Notes: generated by a model from the letters alone, not told the origin. Shown: positions 4,643-12,195, counted from the stretch's first letter. The stretch is 64,000 bases of DNA from Myxococcota bacterium (GCA_044344255.1 JBIJDH010000005.1:160001-224000), one strand, 5' to 3'. Numbers and translations are program-made.

Positions 4643-4700
4643 GGGTGGGTCTCAGGCGAGCGGGTAGACGACTGGCTACCCTCTCTCCGTGAGCCCGCCG

Positions 4701-5597
4701 ATGCGCGACACCCTTGCCCTGTCTGTCCTCCTCACCCTCGCCGCCCCGCTCGCTTGCTCCGGCGACAAGGCAGACACGGGCTCCTCGGGCGGTCACCACG
4801 ATGGCGGATCAGACAGCGGGGGCGCGGAGGGGGTCGCCACCACCATTCAGTTCAGCGCGGGTGCGGGGGACACCCCCTTCTCCTGCACGACCCCGCTCAC
4901 CGGGCTCGGCCTCACGGCGACCACGTGGACGCCCTCCGATCTTCGGCTCTACCTCCATGGCTTCTCGCTGATCGACGCCGCCGGGGAGGCGACGCCCCTG
5001 ATCCTCGAACAGGATGGCCTCTGGCAGGTCGAAGACGTCGTGCTGCTCGACTTCGAAGACAAGACCGGGACCTGCTCCAACGGCACCACCGACCGGAATG
5101 ACCGGGTGGTGGGCACCGCCCCCGCGGGCGAGTGGACGGGCCTCCGCTTCTCGGTCGGTGTGCCCTTTGCGCTCAACCACGGCGACGCCGCCACCGCCCC
5201 TTCGCCCCTCAACCTGAGCTCGATGTTCTGGGGCTGGGAGGGCGGCTACAAGTTTGTGCGCATCGACGGCAGCAGCACGGGGCAGCCCGCGGTGCTCACC
5301 CACATCGGCTCGACGGGCTGCGTGGCGGGGGACGACGGCGAGATCACCGACTGCGCCCAGGAGAACGTCTCGACCCTGACGATCGAGGGCTTCGACCCTG
5401 CCGTGAACACCCTGCGGCTCGATCTGGCCGGCCTCTTCGCGGGCACTGACCTCGACGCCAACGCCGACGGCACCATGGGCATCTGCATGTCCGAGCCCTC
5501 CGATCCCGACTGCGGGCCGATCTTCGCGGCGCTCGGCATCGGCTTCGGCGGCGCGGCGGCAGACCCCACCGCGCAGACCACCTTCGTGGTGGAGTGA
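4701..5597 (+). CDS. mbnP: MbnP-family copper-binding lipoprotein
   Basis: Lipobox LAC; DLRLY, LLDFED..GTC, GVPFALNH, PLN..SMFWGWEGGYKF (WxW motif), HIGSTGC, CMS....PDC. Confidence 0.9.
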   Translation: MRDTLALSVLLTLAAPLACSGDKADTGSSGGHHDGGSDSGGAEGVATTIQFSAGAGDTPFSCTTPLTGLGLTATTWTPSDLRLYLHGFSLIDAAGEATPLILEQDGLWQVEDVVLLDFEDKTGTCSNGTTDRNDRVVGTAPAGEWTGLRFSVGVPFALNHGDAATAPSPLNLSSMFWGWEGGYKFVRIDGSSTGQPAVLTHIGSTGCVAGDDGEITDCAQENVSTLTIEGFDPAVNTLRLDLAGLFAGTDLDANADGTMGICMSEPSDPDCGPIFAALGIGFGGAAADPTAQTTFVVE

Positions 5598-6751
5598 GCG
5601 TGCGGGCCGCCGCGCTCGGGCTCCTGCTGCTCGCCTGCGCCGACAAGGGGGCCCGGAGCGGTGACTCGGACGCCGCCGACGGTTGGGACTGGGGCCTCCC
5701 CGAGGGCTTCCCCGAGCCGAACGTGCCCGTGGACAACCCCATGAGCGCCGCCAAGGTGGAGCTCGGCCGGTACCTCTTCTACGACGTGCGCCTCTCCTAC
5801 AACGAGACCCAGTCCTGCGGCACCTGCCACGAGCAGGACAAGGCCTTCACCGACGGGCGCGCCCAGGCCGAGGGCTCTACCGGCGAGGCGCACCGCCGCG
5901 GCTCGATGGCCCTCGGCAACGTCGCCTGGGCCTCGGGCCTCACCTGGGCCAGCGTCTCCGTGCGCACCCTCGAGGACCAGGCGCTGCTGCCGCTCTTCGG
6001 CGAGCACCCGGTCGAGCTCGGCATGGCGGGGCACGAGGATGAGCTCCTGCGGCGCTTCGCGGAGGACGCCGGTTACCGCGCGCTCTTCGGTGAGGTGTGG
6101 CCGGAGGACGCCGCGCCGGTCACCCTCGCCCACCTCGCCCAGGCCATCGCCGCCTTCGAGCGCTCGCTCGTCACCGCCGGCTCCCCCTACGACCGCTTCC
6201 GCTACGCCGATGACCCGGGCGCGATGTCGGCCTCGGCCCGTCAGGGGATGGGGCTCTTCTTCAGCGAAGAGCTGGAGTGCTTCCACTGCCACGGAGACCC
6301 GCTCTTCACGGACTCCACGGAGACGGCGACCTCCACCTTCGAGGAGCTCTTCTTCCACAACACCGGGCTCTACAACGTGGACGGGGCCGGCGCCTATCCA
6401 GAGCGGGATCAGGGCATCTTCGAGCAGACCGGCCTCGCGCTCGACATGGGGCGCTTCCGGGCGCCGCCGCTGCGCAACGTGGCGCTCACCGCGCCCTACA
6501 TGCACGACGGATCGATCCCGACGCTCGAGCTGGTGCTCGACCACTACGCGGCCGGCGGGCGGACCGTCTCGTCGGGGGAGGACGCGGGTGTGGGGAGCGA
6601 GAGCCCGGTGAAGAGCGAGCTCATCCAGGGCTTTGACCTCGATGAGGCGGACCGACAGCGCGTGATCGACTTCCTCCACGCGCTGACCGACGAGGGCTTC
6701 CTCACCGACGCGCGCTTCGGGCCGCCCGACTCCGCCTCTCCCCCGCTGTGA
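5594..6751 (+). CDS. mbnH: MbnH-family di-heme (MauG/CcpA-like) enzyme
   Basis: Two CxxCH motifs (CGTCH, CFHCH); NPMSAAKVELGRYLFYD; FRAPPLRNVALTAPYMHDGS. GTGA overlap with mbnP. Confidence 0.9.
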   Translation: MSVRAAALGLLLLACADKGARSGDSDAADGWDWGLPEGFPEPNVPVDNPMSAAKVELGRYLFYDVRLSYNETQSCGTCHEQDKAFTDGRAQAEGSTGEAHRRGSMALGNVAWASGLTWASVSVRTLEDQALLPLFGEHPVELGMAGHEDELLRRFAEDAGYRALFGEVWPEDAAPVTLAHLAQAIAAFERSLVTAGSPYDRFRYADDPGAMSASARQGMGLFFSEELECFHCHGDPLFTDSTETATSTFEELFFHNTGLYNVDGAGAYPERDQGIFEQTGLALDMGRFRAPPLRNVALTAPYMHDGSIPTLELVLDHYAAGGRTVSSGEDAGVGSESPVKSELIQGFDLDEADRQRVIDFLHALTDEGFLTDARFGPPDSASPPL

Positions 6752-6897: not shown

Positions 6898-6912
6898 TGG
6901 CACGGCGCGTGC
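6898..6912 (+). promoter_or_regulatory. Putative sigma54 (-24/-12) promoter
   Basis: TGGCACG-GCGC-GTGC versus consensus TGGCACG-N4-TTGC: one mismatch, correct GG-N10-GC spacing. About 50 bp upstream of the small ORF at 6964. Confidence 0.65.
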
Positions 6913-6963
6913 GAAAGGGTCCTGCACGCCAACCCGGCGCCCACCAACCCCTGGAGCCCCCCC

Positions 6964-7080
6964 ATGAACGCCCCCGTCAAGCCCGTCTTCGCCGCCTCCG
7001 CTCGCTCCACCCTCTCCGTCACCGTCAAGACCGGCATCCGCGCTGGCCGGGCCGCCGAGGAGGAGCAGAAGCGCGGCTGA
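6964..7080 (+). CDS. 38-aa peptide, candidate RiPP precursor (MNAPVKPVFAASARSTLSVTVKTGIRAGRAAEEEQKRG)
   Basis: ATG with GGAG 7 nt upstream; nearly all codons end in G/C; upstream promoter and downstream hairpin; followed by two peptide-modifying-type enzymes. Confidence 0.7.
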   Translation: MNAPVKPVFAASARSTLSVTVKTGIRAGRAAEEEQKRG

Positions 7081-7090
7081 GGGACAGAGA

Positions 7091-7117
7091 CGGAGCGGGT
7101 CGATTCGGCCCGCTCCG
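7091..7117 (+). terminator. GC-rich hairpin between the peptide gene and the enzyme genes (attenuator/stabiliser or leaky terminator)
   Basis: CGGAGCGGGTC pairs with GGCCCGCTCCG (one G-U pair); only a short T run follows. Confidence 0.6.
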
Positions 7118-7122
7118 GTCCT

Positions 7123-7827
7123 TTGGCTTCACTCGATCTCCCTCTCCCGCTCCCGCTCCCTCTCCCGCTCCCTCTCCCCGCGCTGCCGCTGCCGGAGCCC
7201 CTCGTGAGCCGCCCCTCTCCCCTTGGTCACTCCCCGATCCGGCTCTCCCAGCGCCCCGAGGTCTGGATGGTGGATGGGTTCATCGACCCCGGCACCGCCG
7301 CCGCCCTCTCCGCCCTGGGGAGGGACACCGAGCGTGCGCGGCTCGCGGAGAGTGAGCCCACGATCAACGAGACGGGCTTCTGCCTCGAGGTGCCGATCGA
7401 GGGGGCGCCCCTCCTCGAGACGCTCCGGGAGCGGATCGAGGGCCTCTTCGAGGTGCAGAGCGACGTCTACGACTGTATTCGGTATCGAAATTATCGACCG
7501 GGTGAGGGGCACCCCGCCCACCTCGACTGCTACGAGATCGAGGGGCGGGAGCTGATCGCCACGGCCCTCCTGTCCCTGCGGGACACGCCGGCCGGGGGAG
7601 AGACGGAGTTCACCGAGGTGGGCCTCGCTGTCCCTCCTCGCCTCGGTCGCCTGCTCTGCTGGTACAATCACAGCCCGGACGGCGCGCGGGACCCTCTCTC
7701 TCGCCACGGCGGCCTGCCGGTCATCGAGGGAGAGAAGGAGGTGCTCCTGTACTTCATCTACAAGCAGAAGGAGTACGCCGCCCACCGTCCCTTCGCTGCG
7801 GGCGAGACCGAGGTGGCGGGTGGATGA
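7123..7827 (+). CDS. 2OG-Fe(II) oxygenase, prolyl-4-hydroxylase-like
   Basis: YRPGEGHPAHLD (HxD), RELIATALLSL, GGETEF, DPLSRHGGLPVIEGEK (distal His and 2OG-binding Lys). Start codon (TTG) is uncertain. Confidence 0.85.
   Translation: MASLDLPLPLPLPLPLPLPALPLPEPLVSRPSPLGHSPIRLSQRPEVWMVDGFIDPGTAAALSALGRDTERARLAESEPTINETGFCLEVPIEGAPLLETLRERIEGLFEVQSDVYDCIRYRNYRPGEGHPAHLDCYEIEGRELIATALLSLRDTPAGGETEFTEVGLAVPPRLGRLLCWYNHSPDGARDPLSRHGGLPVIEGEKEVLLYFIYKQKEYAAHRPFAAGETEVAGG
7138..7179 (+). repeat. 6-bp tandem repeat encoding (Leu-Pro)7
   Basis: CTCCCN x7 at the N-terminus of the oxygenase ORF. Confidence 0.85.
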
Positions 7828-8803
7828 GACGATCCTCGTCCTCACGGCCTCGACCCTGGCCGACGCCGGGGTCGAGCGGGTCTGTGAGGCCCTGCGCTCC
7901 ACCGGGCGCCGCGTCATCGAGGTCGACTCCGCGCGCTTCCCGCTCGACACCCAGCTCTCTGTCGACCTCGATCGCGCCACCCTCCACGACGGTGAGACCG
8001 TGGAGCTCGACCACGTGAGCGCGGTCTGGCACCGGCACACCGACGTCGCGGGCGCCCTCGGGGACGCCCTTGACCCCACCTGGCGCGACGCCGTCGTCCG
8101 GCAGTCCGAGCTCGCCCTCGCCGTGCTGGCGGCCGACCTCCCTTGCCTGCACGTCGATCACCCCGACCGCACCGAGGCCGTGCCCGGCTCACCGGGCATC
8201 CTCCGCCTCGGCCGCGCGGCTGGCCTCGATGTGCCTCGCACGTTGGTCTCGAACCACCCGGGTCGGGTCCGGGACTTCGTGCGCGGCTGCGAAGGCGGCG
8301 CGGTGCGGAAGCTCCTGCACAGCTCCTCGGTCATCATCCACACCGAGGCGGGCGACGTCCGGGGCAGCACCGAGGCGGTCTCCCCCGACGATCTGGTCGA
8401 TGACAGATCCATCGCCGCCTGCCCGATGGTGTGGCAGGAGCGGGTCCCGAAGCTGCGCGAGCTGCGGGTGACCGCGGTGGGGCGCCGCCTCTTCGTCGCC
8501 TCGATCGACCCCCGCGCCTCGGTCCAGGGCGCGGTGGACTGGCGCCAGGACCCTGCGCTCGTGCGGGCCTTCGAGGTCGACACGCTCCCCCCAGCGGTGG
8601 AGGCCGCCGTCCACCGGCTGCTCGACCGCCTCCGCCTGAACTTCGCCACCCTCGACATCATCCGCACGCCCGAGGGGCGCCATGTGCTGCTGGAGGTGAA
8701 CACGCTCTCCTTCTTCGCCTTCGTCGAGGACGCGACCGGCCTGCCCATCTCCGCCGAGCTGGCGCGCCTGCTGGCCGGAGAGGTGCCCTCGCGGGCGCCC
8801 TGA
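7820..8803 (+). CDS. ATP-grasp ligase, MvdC/MvdD (graspetide synthetase)-like
   Basis: ARFP, VSAVWHR, GLDVPRTLVSN, QERVPKLRELRVTAVG, VDWR, LDIIRTPEGRHVLLEVN, GLPIS; 327 aa; overlaps the oxygenase stop codon. Confidence 0.85.
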   Translation: MDETILVLTASTLADAGVERVCEALRSTGRRVIEVDSARFPLDTQLSVDLDRATLHDGETVELDHVSAVWHRHTDVAGALGDALDPTWRDAVVRQSELALAVLAADLPCLHVDHPDRTEAVPGSPGILRLGRAAGLDVPRTLVSNHPGRVRDFVRGCEGGAVRKLLHSSSVIIHTEAGDVRGSTEAVSPDDLVDDRSIAACPMVWQERVPKLRELRVTAVGRRLFVASIDPRASVQGAVDWRQDPALVRAFEVDTLPPAVEAAVHRLLDRLRLNFATLDIIRTPEGRHVLLEVNTLSFFAFVEDATGLPISAELARLLAGEVPSRAP

Positions 8804-8861: not shown

Positions 8862-9278
8862 ATGACCCGATTGCGGCAGCCTGCCCCCGACTTCGCCTCC
8901 GCAGCGCTTCGGCACCTTCGTGACGCCGATGTCCTGGTGACGACCTCGCCGGTTCAAAGCCTACACCTCGCGGGGTTCGGCCCGGAGTGCGCTCGAAAGG
9001 CGGCTCTGACGAGGGGTTGGGCGACTCGGGCGCTCGGTCACGACGCGGCCCAACCCGAGCTTGTCGCCTGGGCGCTCGATCTGGACGGGGTCGCCGCTCG
9101 AACTGTGGGCACCCCTGCACCCGACCTCGGCTGGCGGCCGGACTGCCGCTATTGGGCCTCCGGCGCTCGAACCGGCGCCGAGGCGCGTGCGATGGTGGAC
9201 CGGTGCGCCGCGGACGCTATGCCCATCCTCGTCCGCCTCTGGGCCCAAGGGCGGTGGGCGGGAGATAACGAGTCATGA
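8862..9278 (+). CDS. HEPN-like domain protein
   Basis: 138 aa, helical. DFASAALRHLRDADVL, HLAGFGPECARKA, LGH and WRPDCRY follow the HEPN helix pattern (A..L / E...KA / H / RY). Confidence 0.65.
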   Translation: MTRLRQPAPDFASAALRHLRDADVLVTTSPVQSLHLAGFGPECARKAALTRGWATRALGHDAAQPELVAWALDLDGVAARTVGTPAPDLGWRPDCRYWASGARTGAEARAMVDRCAADAMPILVRLWAQGRWAGDNES

Positions 9279-10591
9279 CGCTTGATTATCAAGATGTCGT
9301 GCCGGAGGTGCTGCGCGTCTTCGTGGAAAGTCGGGCCTGGGGGGCGGGGGTTCGAGCCCTCATCGTGCGCACCCTGCACGGAGCGGTCCGGCTTGTGCTT
9401 GACGCTGACCATACACAGCCCGAGCACATCAGCGAGCTTGAACAGTCCCTGGTGACAGCGCTCGGACCGTGGTTTCGGGGCCCCGTGATCGCGCCGAACA
9501 TCGTCCCGGAGGGCCTGCGACGGATCGCTCGCGAGCTTTGGAGAGGAGCCGAGGAAACCGCTCGACAAAAGCCGGATTGGGCGGATCGCTGGCCGACCGG
9601 CTGGCCTGCGGAGGTCCCTGGCGCCCTCCCTGGTTCGCCGGCCATCGCGCTGGGCGGGCGAGTGGAGGCCCGTCAGGAGGCCCTGGGCAAGGAGCCCTGG
9701 GTGGCCCCGGAGCTCGGGCATGCGCCCTGGCCGATGGCGCCCCGGACCCCGCGCATCACGGCCTTTCACGGGTTCAAGGGTGGTGCAGGCCGCACCACCG
9801 CCCTGGGGATGCTGGCGTGGCTTGTGGCCGCGCGACGCGAGCGGGTTGTGTGTGTCGATCTCGACCTGGAGGCACCGGGGCTGTCCTATTTTCTCCCGGG
9901 AGATCAGCCGGTCCAGCGGGGCGTTATTGACTTTCTGCTCTCCCACGCGGCAACTGGGCAGGGGGGGGCACTTCCTGTGCAGGCGGTGCAGATTCTTGGT
10001 CAAGAGCTCCACGTCGTGGCGGCTGGAGTGGTAGACGACCTGTATGTAGAGAAGCTCAGTCGCCTGGATACGCTCCACGGCGACACCAGCCGGAGTCCTG
10101 TCCATCTCGCCCTGAATGAGCTCTTGGAGCGCATCAAAAGGGACATCAAGCCGCAGCACATCTTCCTCGATTGCCGAGCCGGTTTGCATGACTTGGCCGG
10201 CCTCGCGCTGAACGATCTGGCTCACGTCAACGTGTTTGTGGGTCGTGGTGGGGTTCAGGAGATGGGCGGCCTCTACGCCTTGTTGCGTCGACATACGAGT
10301 CGCAGGGCGTCGGACGATCAGCTCCTCTTATTCCTGCGTACCTTTCATCCGCTTCCAATCGAGCCGGACCGCCTCGACCGGCAGCGGCAGGCGCTCTTTG
10401 AGCTTTGCACAGAAGTGATCAAGCCCTATCTCCCGCAATATTCGGACCAGGGAGCGGCGCACGATCCTGCTCCCCTGGGCTACCACGACGAGGTCACTCG
10501 AGCGGACCACTTGGGGAAGATCCCGATGCTGGCCATTCAGCACCCTCTCGTGGTAGAGGCCCTGGCCCGGCTGGAGGCGCTTTGGACATGA
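9275..10591 (+). CDS. ParA/MinD-like ATPase with variant Walker A (KGGAGRTT) and N-terminal extension
   Basis: FHGFKGGAGRTT, VDLDLEAPGL, GVIDFL, FLDCRAG. ATGA overlaps at both ends. Confidence 0.85.
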   Translation: MTLDYQDVVPEVLRVFVESRAWGAGVRALIVRTLHGAVRLVLDADHTQPEHISELEQSLVTALGPWFRGPVIAPNIVPEGLRRIARELWRGAEETARQKPDWADRWPTGWPAEVPGALPGSPAIALGGRVEARQEALGKEPWVAPELGHAPWPMAPRTPRITAFHGFKGGAGRTTALGMLAWLVAARRERVVCVDLDLEAPGLSYFLPGDQPVQRGVIDFLLSHAATGQGGALPVQAVQILGQELHVVAAGVVDDLYVEKLSRLDTLHGDTSRSPVHLALNELLERIKRDIKPQHIFLDCRAGLHDLAGLALNDLAHVNVFVGRGGVQEMGGLYALLRRHTSRRASDDQLLLFLRTFHPLPIEPDRLDRQRQALFELCTEVIKPYLPQYSDQGAAHDPAPLGYHDEVTRADHLGKIPMLAIQHPLVVEALARLEALWT

Positions 10592-12195
10592 ACACGGACC
10601 TGAGTTCGGTCGAGCGACGGAGACTCCAGGGCCTGTTGGTGGATGCGCTCGCGCCAGAACATCCACAGGTCCCGGATTCGAGCATTATCGCGTCTTTCCT
10701 CCCCCTCCGTGTACACGAGACTATGTTGAATGGGCGGCGCTTCCTTGTGGAGGGTGAGCGGGGTGCTGGTAAGACGGCGCTCTTTCGCTTCATGCGAGCC
10801 TTGACACCGACCGTGTTGCCGATTGTCTTCCCGCAGGCGCCGCCGGGGCTCCGCTGGGTGACCGGCTTCGAAGACTCCAGGGCCTTTCCCAACCCGCAGG
10901 CGCTCTACGATTGGGCTGAGCGCGCTTCACCGCAGGTGATGGAGCGCGCCTGGTTCGCGCTCTTGGTGGAGACGCTGGCTCGGCACCTGCCCGACACGCC
11001 GCTCCCACCGTCAGTCGCCGACGCGCTGCGGCCGTTGAAGGAAAATCCCTCCGACGTGGCGAGGTGGGTGCTCTCGTTCGAGCCGGTGGCCGGCCTATCG
11101 ATGGCGTGGATGGACACCCTCGAGGTTTACCTCGGAGCGAGCAGCTCGACGATCATCATCGCGTATGATGATCTTGACATGATCTCGCGGGCCGCGGACC
11201 TTCGCACCGCGGGTCGGCTGTGTGGAGCGCTCACCGGGACCTGGATCACGCTGTCTCGGCGGCTCCAACGGGTACAGGCCCGGATCTTCATTCGGCCCGA
11301 TCTGGCCGATCTCACCCGCTCTGCCGCGACAGACGCGAGCAAGTTGCGGGACAGCTCAGTCACCCTCCGTTGGTCAGGGGAAGACGTGTTCCGTGCCCTG
11401 CTCCGGCGGGTGGGGAGCCAGAAGGCCCTGCGGGACTGGCTCCGAAAGGCCCCCGCGGCGGTGGATTTCAGCCGTCGCCCGACGCTGGGATGGATGCCCC
11501 CGAGCGTCCTCCCATCGGTACCCACACAGCTTTCCCTCGGTTTTGCAGCGTCGCCGGAGGGCTTGTCCGAGAGCAGCCAGCGGGCTTTTGCCGAGCGCCT
11601 CCTTGGCGCCACCATGGGGAGCGGCTCCAATAAGGGCTACACCCACACCTGGATCCTGAATCACTCCGCCGATGCGCGGGGCACCGCGCTTCCGCGCGTC
11701 ACCTTCAACCTGATTCGAAAGGCGGCTGAGCTTGCGATGGTCAGGGGTGAGGGGATCCACGGCCTTCACTTGATCGGTACCGCGCAGCTGGAGGGGGCGC
11801 AAGCGGAGGCGGGGAGACAGCGCCTTGATGAGCTGAAGGAGTTCCACCCGGTCGTTCGGCGGCTCGAAGCCCTTCGGGGCGAGTCGCTCCCGAAGCCGTT
11901 TGGAGAGGCGGCCGCTCTCCTCGGCCGTCATCCTGTGGAGGAGGATGCGCTCGGTACGGACGGGGAGGCCGTGATCCGGGCCCTGATGGGGATCGGTGTC
12001 CTGGTACGTCGGCCACCGTCCCGGCGCCGCCCCGGCTCCGTGCCGTCGAGTGACCCCGCCTCGGAGGAACAGCGGATCGATCTCCCCGACCTCTTTCGGA
12101 AGGCCCTCGACTGTGGGCGGAAGGGCGGGCCCTTGCAGCTCTCTCGACCGGAGTCGACGCACGGGGGGCGCGACCGAGGGCCCGGCGCCGGATAA
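10588..12195 (+). CDS. P-loop ATPase (STAND/KAP-like) of unknown function
   Basis: ATG 10588 overlaps the previous stop codon. Walker A VEGERGAGKT, Walker B IIIAYDDLD, RIFIRPD, LRWS, WILNHSAD....PR. Confidence 0.8.
   Translation: MNTDLSSVERRRLQGLLVDALAPEHPQVPDSSIIASFLPLRVHETMLNGRRFLVEGERGAGKTALFRFMRALTPTVLPIVFPQAPPGLRWVTGFEDSRAFPNPQALYDWAERASPQVMERAWFALLVETLARHLPDTPLPPSVADALRPLKENPSDVARWVLSFEPVAGLSMAWMDTLEVYLGASSSTIIIAYDDLDMISRAADLRTAGRLCGALTGTWITLSRRLQRVQARIFIRPDLADLTRSAATDASKLRDSSVTLRWSGEDVFRALLRRVGSQKALRDWLRKAPAAVDFSRRPTLGWMPPSVLPSVPTQLSLGFAASPEGLSESSQRAFAERLLGATMGSGSNKGYTHTWILNHSADARGTALPRVTFNLIRKAAELAMVRGEGIHGLHLIGTAQLEGAQAEAGRQRLDELKEFHPVVRRLEALRGESLPKPFGEAAALLGRHPVEEDALGTDGEAVIRALMGIGVLVRRPPSRRRPGSVPSSDPASEEQRIDLPDLFRKALDCGRKGGPLQLSRPESTHGGRDRGPGAG

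Follow-up and report, generated by a model that had tools for sequence, protein, structure and literature searches.

We analysed a 64,000-nucleotide stretch of DNA from a Myxococcota bacterium (hereafter the window; contig C70 in a genome of 8.2 Mb and 71% GC), in which a sigma54-type box, an open reading frame (ORF) of 38 codons, a gene for an oxygenase resembling prolyl 4-hydroxylase (P4H) and a gene for an ATP-grasp ligase of the MvdC/D fold form one real cluster, all parts of which lie at the positions listed in Table 1. The original prediction, made from this DNA alone, had described the box, a Shine-Dalgarno sequence, a short ORF with host-like codon bias, a hairpin and two overlapping enzyme genes, and every one of these is present; the overlap is 8 nt, and codon adaptation of the precursor ORF is 0.83, the five other frames giving 0.21–0.48. 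Its proposal of a unit composed of a graspetide-type precursor, an oxygenase and a ligase was also borne out. Judged from its sequence features, the cluster is a graspetide-type system for peptides made by ribosomes and modified after translation (RiPPs) that belongs to an undescribed group and has an accessory oxygenase. On the basis of the residue conservation described below, we propose, with a probability of roughly 0.7, that the product of the ligase is a lactam of the Glu(i)–Lys(i+4) type, joining Glu32 to Lys36 in this peptide, in which the acid stands before the amine.

Table 1. Positions of the cluster features in the window.
Feature	Position	Strand	Basis and remarks
Sigma54-type promoter box, TGGCAC-N5-GTGC	6898..6912	+	Correct -24/-12 spacing; RpoN-box motif also on C36; putative function
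Shine-Dalgarno sequence, GGAG	6953..6956	+	Common to precursor paralogs
Precursor peptide gene, 38 amino acids (aa), ATG..TGA	6964..7080	+	Paralogs, alignment, codon adaptation
PVFA (residues 7-10), a worn version of PFFA(RFL), the leader motif for ligase binding	6982..6993	+	No variation at P7, F9 and A10 among 17 precursors
KTGIRAG closing the leader (residues 22-28), putative site of double-Gly-like cleavage	7027..7047	+	G28 invariant; predicted cleavage
Core, residues 29-38; Glu32 (7057-7059) and Lys36 (7069-7071), predicted lactam pair	7048..7077	+	E32, K36 invariant
Hairpin of 12 pairs lacking a U tract, separating precursor and enzyme genes	7091..7117	+	-25.2 kcal/mol; present in C26 copy too
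2-oxoglutarate (2OG)-Fe(II) oxygenase, P4H-like	7204..7827	+	PF13640, E 2e-6; H106-x-D108, H168, K178 intact
ATP-grasp ligase, MvdC/D fold, distinct clade	7820..8803	+	PF21068; S297, H73, P122, T295; S124 for MdnC K125

The evidence that carries this proposal is the constancy of one residue spacing. Twenty-two loci of the ligase clade described below have DNA context: eight have adjacent short precursors, in another eight the neighbour is a long protein whose leader has P[LFI]FA, three have neither, and three start at or inside the ligase gene. The peptides that had been expected to recur near homologous ligases are therefore adjacent in 16 of the 22. In the 20 short cores, which come from 10 genomes or contigs, Glu-x3-Lys occurs in all 20, with 4.0 expected by shuffling; no other Glu–Lys spacing is enriched, and neither is Glu-x3-Arg (4 cores, 3.2 expected) nor Lys-x3-Glu (3 cores, 4.0 expected). 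Of the 38 lysines in the cores, 29 stand at Glu+4, the three middle positions vary widely across the 29 motifs, eight cores have no Lys, Ser or Thr ahead of any acid, and one core contains just one Glu and one Lys. The motif was derived from 12 cores, all five found later by motif-independent searches fit it, and the other three were found with a profile that holds the Glu and Lys columns; when each of seven sources contributes one core, the combined probability by chance is 2e-5. When 17 short precursors were aligned, only M1, P7, F9, A10, G28, E32 and K36 were invariant. Of the three glutamates that had been suggested as acceptors, only Glu32 is thus conserved, and Glu remains the likely acceptor. 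Lysine is likewise the likely donor, whereas the proposed alternatives, namely an upstream Ser/Thr or a hydroxyl made by the oxygenase, found no counterpart in the cores, where no Ser/Thr-to-acid spacing is enriched.

The same spacing was found in much larger proteins. Directly upstream of clade ligases that have lost a lysine discussed below, there are helical proteins of 180–350 aa with a P[LFI]FA leader and 3–15 Glu-x3-Lys motifs (loci L111, L112, L113, L042, L114, L012, L222 and L223). Seven of these, L223 being set aside as almost a duplicate of L222, form an independent set that was unused in defining the motif, and they contain 54 Glu-x3-Lys against 12.5 expected (z 13), together with a depleted Glu-x3-Arg (6 against 12.4), 11 Lys-x3-Glu against 12.6 and 3 Lys-x3-Asp against 9.9. 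The genome background for Glu-x3-Lys is 1.19-fold over 2659 ORFs. For the L111 protein, the structural model consists of long helices and has low confidence, with a mean predicted local distance difference test (pLDDT) value of 62. Neither of two long precursors tested has a Pfam or NCBIfam match, and a search of the ESM Atlas with L222 returned unnamed matches only, all under 0.9.

The precursor in the window is linked to the ligase gene and has, besides donor and acceptor residues in its core, a leader of the form Phhx(1,2)h, which the accessible text of PMC8939145 describes for graspetides. The original prediction had regarded the microviridin leader as absent; this does not hold, since PVFA aligns with PFFA, and the group 1 precursors, both in the same set of loci and in the part of the PMC13097080 table available, share the two leader elements and also end their leader in [KR]T-x-[VI]-[KR]-AG. 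Because the leader elements P7, F9, A10 and G28 are invariant in the 17 precursors, we regard the leader as the microviridin type in a worn form. The absence of a TxKxPSD core had been stated correctly, and such a core is missing from all 20 cores. No Pfam or NCBIfam family matches the 38-aa peptide. A 70-aa form with a TTG start was rejected, because the Shine-Dalgarno sequence and four paralogs indicate the ATG at 6964.

These paralogs lie in the same genome, three on C26, C77 and C83 with 68–76% identity and a fourth, more distant, on C51, and none has a ligase or oxygenase alongside. A canonical TGGCAC-N5-TTGC box stands 52, 53 and 72 nt upstream of the C77, C83 and C51 paralogs, respectively, and the C26 copy has none. 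In the C26 copy (G000:C26:123429-123536), likeness to the window starts just past the sigma54 box and takes in the hairpin, and the enzymes are lacking; possibly it is a recent promoterless duplicate. Across the genome, 13 rows combine a box, a Shine-Dalgarno sequence and a short ORF, and eight of these are peptides with the precursor-type leader end. A single-sequence locus search of contigs gave no relative and an alignment-based search did. With the precursor profile against 154 genomes of the order, all matches at E <1e-4 fall in genomes with a clade ligase (seven genomes), and the weaker matches that were read are mostly group 1 precursors. Other short peptides of this genome have the same leader-end type and no Glu-x3-Lys (G000:C69:28435, C75:3706, C5 near 33970, C73:27084 and C77:189107 on the minus strand), four of them behind sigma54 boxes; the C73 peptide precedes a cupin-like ORF and the minus-strand C77 peptide an ORF resembling a lanthipeptide dehydratase, both labels being assigned by eye. 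The leader end seems to be common to several RiPP classes in the genome.

The ligase is of the MvdC/D type, with PF21068 above its cut-off, and it scores well below the equivalog cut-offs of the TIGR04184/5 pair (207.6 bits against 475 for TIGR04184, and 184.9 against 425 for the second model). Its structural model (pLDDT 89) is nearest to MdnC (5IG9; template-modelling score 0.85, 28% identity). Among 40 homologs, the top 19 have an altered C-terminal motif or group with those having it, and in a 107-row FastTree the clade forms one branch of 52 rows with a Shimodaira-Hasegawa-type (SH) support of 99, which is local support in a midpoint-rooted tree whose rows outside the clade were subsampled. 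In the clade, EvN-T-x-S-F replaces EvNPxG; S297 is present in 49 of 52 clade rows and Gly in 323 of 325 other rows, and H73, P122 and T295 are further marks. R72, R216, the D240-W-R242 loop, Q206, E214, K164, D279, E292 and N294 are kept, and for the equivalents of several of these (PsnB R72/R213, the D(F/W)R loop, and MdnC Q207/E215 and K166) a catalytic need is reported in the available parts of the PsnB preprint and PMC12848669. The leader-binding acids are also kept, D190/D191 matching MdnC E191/D192. Co-folding of ligase and peptide scored 0.42 against 0.02 for the best control, which lends weak support to leader binding; of 157 solved pairs, 116 attain the mark applied, as do 2 of 215 mismatched ones, and those attaining it at 0.60 or below are just 18 of the solved pairs and the two mismatched ones. 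The runs share at least 54% of contacts with a partner pLDDT of at least 54, and the score may reflect likeness to 5IG9. A search of the same 154 genomes gave a match at E 1e-85 or better in 13, nearly all of which have a clade member.

A second ligase of the same clade, 38% identical to that in the window, lies on C54 without an adjacent precursor. About 9 kb from it is a C39 peptidase–ABC transporter, flanked by a HlyD-like and a second ABC-like ORF as read from their sequences. A PF03412 match on C83 was rejected as an exporter, being a single 387-aa ORF in which no ABC part was seen. We also noted a 716-aa chain of two MvdC/D-like ATP-grasp domains (P0059) and, at L026, L005, L015, L016 and L017 (genomes G005, G056, G003 and G015), three to five MvdC/D-like ligases in tandem.

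The best solved relatives of the oxygenase are prolyl 4-hydroxylases, among them the Bacillus anthracis P4H (5iax, E 5.8e-10). The residues H106, D108, H168 and K178, which make up the HxD...H triad and the 2OG-binding Lys, are invariant in 12 homologs, and the gene is single-copy in the genome. As to its recurrence near homologous ligases, the oxygenase adjoins the ligase in 4 of the 22 clade loci, and in two more loci (L242 and L258) it adjoins a Glu-x3-Lys precursor without a ligase. When 401 genomes of the phylum were searched with the oxygenase family, 31 had a match and 27 new loci were obtained. An ATP-grasp-type C-terminal motif is in frame with the oxygenase in 22 of the 27, and a protein enriched in Glu-x3-Lys (z >3) lies upstream in 12; two fusions scanned with hidden Markov models proved to be RimK-like. 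At three fusion loci of genus g25, each upstream protein has 115–173 aa and holds 8–12 Glu-x3-Lys (z 4.5–6.6). As the loci L273–L275 (G034, G432 and G054) and L281–L307 show, more distant members of the oxygenase family form fusions with a RimK-like ATP-grasp domain in many genomes of the phylum, and the upstream proteins are often rich in Glu-x3-Lys; some of these proteins have a weak PqqD/RRE-like start (RRE, RiPP recognition element) and a segment like a twin-arginine translocation (Tat) signal, and those of genus g25 share a PKVI tail. From the sequences, the fused loci look like a second, undescribed stapling system.

The course of events we envisage for the cluster is as follows. The sigma54 promoter would drive the short precursor, and the ligase would bind the PVFA/PFFA leader. 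Using ATP, it would phosphorylate the Glu32 carboxylate, which the Lys36 amine would attack, giving one Glu32–Lys36 lactam, as conservation of the two residues suggests. Such a lactam would have the geometry of a staple spanning one helical turn, its acid lying on the N-terminal side of its amine. The oxygenase would then probably hydroxylate some residue of the motif in the bridged unit; by analogy with CorC of the corallotide system (see below), the atom could tentatively be assigned as the Lys delta carbon. There is, in our estimate, an even chance that cleavage of the leader follows Gly28 and that the C39 peptidase–ABC transporter on C54 exports the resulting product of 10 residues. The enzymes may also act in trans on the orphan precursors of C26, C51, C77 and C83, and the relatives would apply the same ligase clade to the helical proteins of 180–350 aa with 3–15 motifs. 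The original prediction overlooked the Glu-x3-Lys rule and its reversed order, the paralogs acting in trans, a second ligase and an exporter elsewhere in the genome, and the corallotide precedent.

Several observations weigh against this interpretation or limit the evidence. Three clade loci, namely our own C54, L192 and L050, have no precursor despite upstream DNA; three of the 20 precursors come from a profile already containing the Glu and Lys columns, and the paralogs are non-independent. At L141 (Nannocystis sp. RBIL2, a cultured strain), a sister ligase outside the clade is accompanied by one Glu-x3-Lys and one Glu-x4-Lys precursor, and this may be an acid-first relative. The leader is worn, PVFA having no Arg where PFFAR has one; its end is AG, with Ile at -4, Leu at -12 and Lys instead of a hydrophobic residue at -7, and the canonical double-Gly-type sites given in the available part of a review are GG, GA and GS, without AG. 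Sigma54-type boxes number 74 genome-wide against 43 in one base shuffle, so that a single box is weak evidence, and the 133-nt stretch with the hairpin folds no better than its shuffles (z -0.26). On the side of the oxygenase, 18 of the 22 clade loci have none beside them, the close oxygenases at L267, L271 and L272 have no peptide within 1.5 kb, and in 14 of the 27 phylum loci no Glu-x3-Lys protein is directly upstream, one further locus being without upstream DNA.

A further point of this kind concerns the ligase itself and leads to the first of the alternatives. The equivalent of MdnC K125, which we take to be an ATP contact, is S124 in the window ligase, and this Lys is missing from 28 of the 29 rows that make up the subclade of the window ligase, and kept in 320 of 325 other MvdC/D-like rows. 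The product could thus be the same and the window ligase weak or inactive, with the C54 ligase, which keeps the Lys and has no precursor beside it, catalysing in trans, or with the oxygenase needed as an activator; dependence on a partner is published, CorB needing CorC (PMC13097080) and MyxD2 needing MyxF/MyxD1 (PMC12848669), in the portions of these papers available. We consider this unlikely, because the remaining catalytic residues vary little or not at all across the 29-row subclade, dN/dS is 0.08 and 0.28 in two pairs, and genome G019 (94% complete) has a lone MvdD-like match, which is of the Lys-lost type and lies beside a protein with nine motifs. Arg163, beside K164, is present in 14 of the 29 rows and might compensate for the loss. 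A different objection is that Glu-x3-Lys might form a salt bridge within a helix, or act as a mark for recognition, while the ligase adds an outside amine or acid, as RimK-like enzymes do, or cross-links two chains. Helices favour the pairing of Glu(i) with Lys(i+4), the L111 protein is modelled as long helices, and the fused system uses a RimK-like domain. A salt bridge, however, would tolerate Arg, and Glu-x3-Arg is unenriched not only in the short cores and the long proteins, as given above, but also upstream of the phylum oxygenase loci (6 against 15); the background enrichment of Glu-x3-Lys in the genome is slight; and outside ligation would need one residue and no fixed pair, whereas the ligase fold is nearest to macrocyclases. 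This explanation is accordingly quite improbable in our view.

As to the oxygenase, it could be an ordinary P4H-like passenger that leaves the peptide untouched, its best solved relatives being prolyl 4-hydroxylases and its distribution including stand-alone copies as well as the many clade loci that lack it. Against this stand the overlap of its gene with that of the ligase, its tie to a ligase or precursor in six loci of differing gene order, the fusion of its family to an ATP-grasp domain behind Glu-x3-Lys proteins, and the corallotide precedent, and a passenger role appears improbable. Ester links to a tail Glu, whose donor would be an upstream Ser/Thr or a hydroxyl that the oxygenase introduces, have in their favour that Ser or Thr is conserved at leader-end position -6 or -5 and that esters are the commonest graspetide bond. 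The same Ser/Thr is, however, found in group 1 leaders, its distance to the conserved Glu varies in the 17 aligned precursors, Ser/Thr–acid spacings are unenriched as noted above, and L032, L033, L115 and L212 have short precursors with no oxygenase nearby, which together make esters very improbable. We therefore retain the Glu32–Lys36 lactam as the preferred reading.

For comparison with known systems, the published accounts are used here to the extent of their accessible text. In logic the closest known system is corallotide (CorABCD of Corallococcus; graspetide group 15), in which a KxxxD lactam is formed and then 5-hydroxylated by the PF13640 enzyme CorC, which also activates the ligase (PMC13097080). 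Both systems have a graspetide synthetase with a PF13640 2OG-Fe oxygenase, an i,i+4 side-chain lactam (predicted in our case) and large repeat-bearing precursors, and in residue order they are, by this analogy, mirror images. Corallotide has Lys-x3-Asp with the amine first, a 22 kDa precursor with a helical N-domain and the beta-lactamase CorD, and is restricted to Corallococcus, whereas our cluster has Glu-x3-Lys with the acid first, a 38-aa precursor without Asp, a microviridin-type leader and no beta-lactamase; the separation is based on the published description of corallotide. In leader and fold, microviridins and myxomiditides are nearest. With microviridins (group 1; MdnB/MdnC, 5IG8/5IG9) the cluster shares the ligase fold, the PFFA-type leader, the TGxKAG-type leader end and the leader-binding acidic pair, but it has no TxKxPSDx(D/E)(D/E) in any of the 20 cores, a single ligase instead of an MvdC and MvdD pair above the equivalog cut-offs, the altered C-terminal motif, the lost K125 equivalent and a predicted lactam only, with the acid first. 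Myxomiditides of the MyxF subclade (class 3 microviridins; PMC12848669) are likewise a microviridin-like system of Myxococcota with short Lys/Glu lactam rings and the same leader type; there MyxF makes Lys(i)–Glu(i+3) links ahead of a tricyclic core and four ligases are present, while our cluster has Glu(i)–Lys(i+4) and neither a tricyclic core nor (KxxE)n, Lys-x2-Glu occurring in 5 of 20 cores with 4.4 expected. Precursors of genome G005 have Lys/Glu-rich segments ahead of a KYPSD core and are myxomiditide-like. The oxygenase shares the HxD...H iron triad and the 2OG-binding Lys with bacterial and algal prolyl 4-hydroxylases (5IAX, 2JIG), but the precursor core has no Pro, and the family tracks Glu-x3-Lys substrates and ATP-grasp partners. 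In its sequence features the cluster departs from both group 1 and group 15, and, the lost Lys apart, it has those expected of graspetides as a class.

In all links described for microviridin, plesiocin, myxomiditide, rosaritide and corallotide, the donor precedes the acceptor, as far as the available text of the sources goes (PMC13097080, PMC12848669, PMC8939145, PMC9576775, PMC11626197, PMC10885120 and the PsnB preprint). The literature covered on graspetides, ATP-grasp isopeptides and stapled lactams contained no description of Glu-x3-Lys; subscription-journal work, Ramesh 2021 and Lee 2020 lie outside this scope, and an acid-first link may be in print. In the accessible parts of the PMC13097080 precursor table (20,891 rows) and the PMC8939145 supplements, neither a member of the family nor the clade ligase HEX7154399.1 was among the matches listed.

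The surroundings of the cluster add the following. No protease or exporter gene adjoins it, as had been noted. No contig of three runs lay on this stretch, which bears on expression neither way. Directly upstream on the same strand are genes for an MbnP-family copper-binding protein and an MbnH-family di-heme enzyme (window 4689–6751), and a link to these was rejected because they stand beside no other clade locus examined. Downstream, a KGGVGR-motif AAA ATPase is followed by a P-loop ATPase of the Sll1717 family (window 9275–12195), where GC at third codon positions is below that of the flanks; this module was possibly acquired. A sigma70 promoter was considered and rejected, the scan giving none. 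The terminator scan did not list the hairpin, for which a role as attenuator or RNA stabiliser is possible. Between the hairpin and the oxygenase start there is a CT-rich low-complexity repeat (7129–7183), which would be read as a spurious Leu-Pro extension from a TTG at 7123.

The sigma54-type control of five scattered precursor copies would fit a secreted signal or inhibitor. Chemical stapling of helices classically relies on a lactam between Glu(i) and Lys(i+4), and an enzyme able to form it in varied sequences would be a useful peptide-stapling tool. The proposed acid-before-amine order would overturn the donor-first pattern of the characterised links in the literature examined, and the clade-specific residues S297, T295, H73 and P122 offer a testable cause of the reversal. 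Tailoring by a lactam and a 2OG oxygenase would also be extended beyond Corallococcus. More broadly, and with somewhat less than even confidence, Glu-x3-Lys lactam stapling may be a general, undescribed modification code of the phylum, written by two ATP-grasp lineages, namely the MvdC/D-like clade with its PFFA leader and the RimK-like domain found as a fusion with the oxygenase family. Its substrates would be short peptides as well as helical proteins of 115–440 aa that bear at most 15 staples and in some cases have RRE-like and Tat-like segments, and hydroxylation would be the finishing step. The window cluster would in that case represent the smallest form of a naturally occurring, programmable set of helix-stapling enzymes in which donor and acceptor stand in reversed order.

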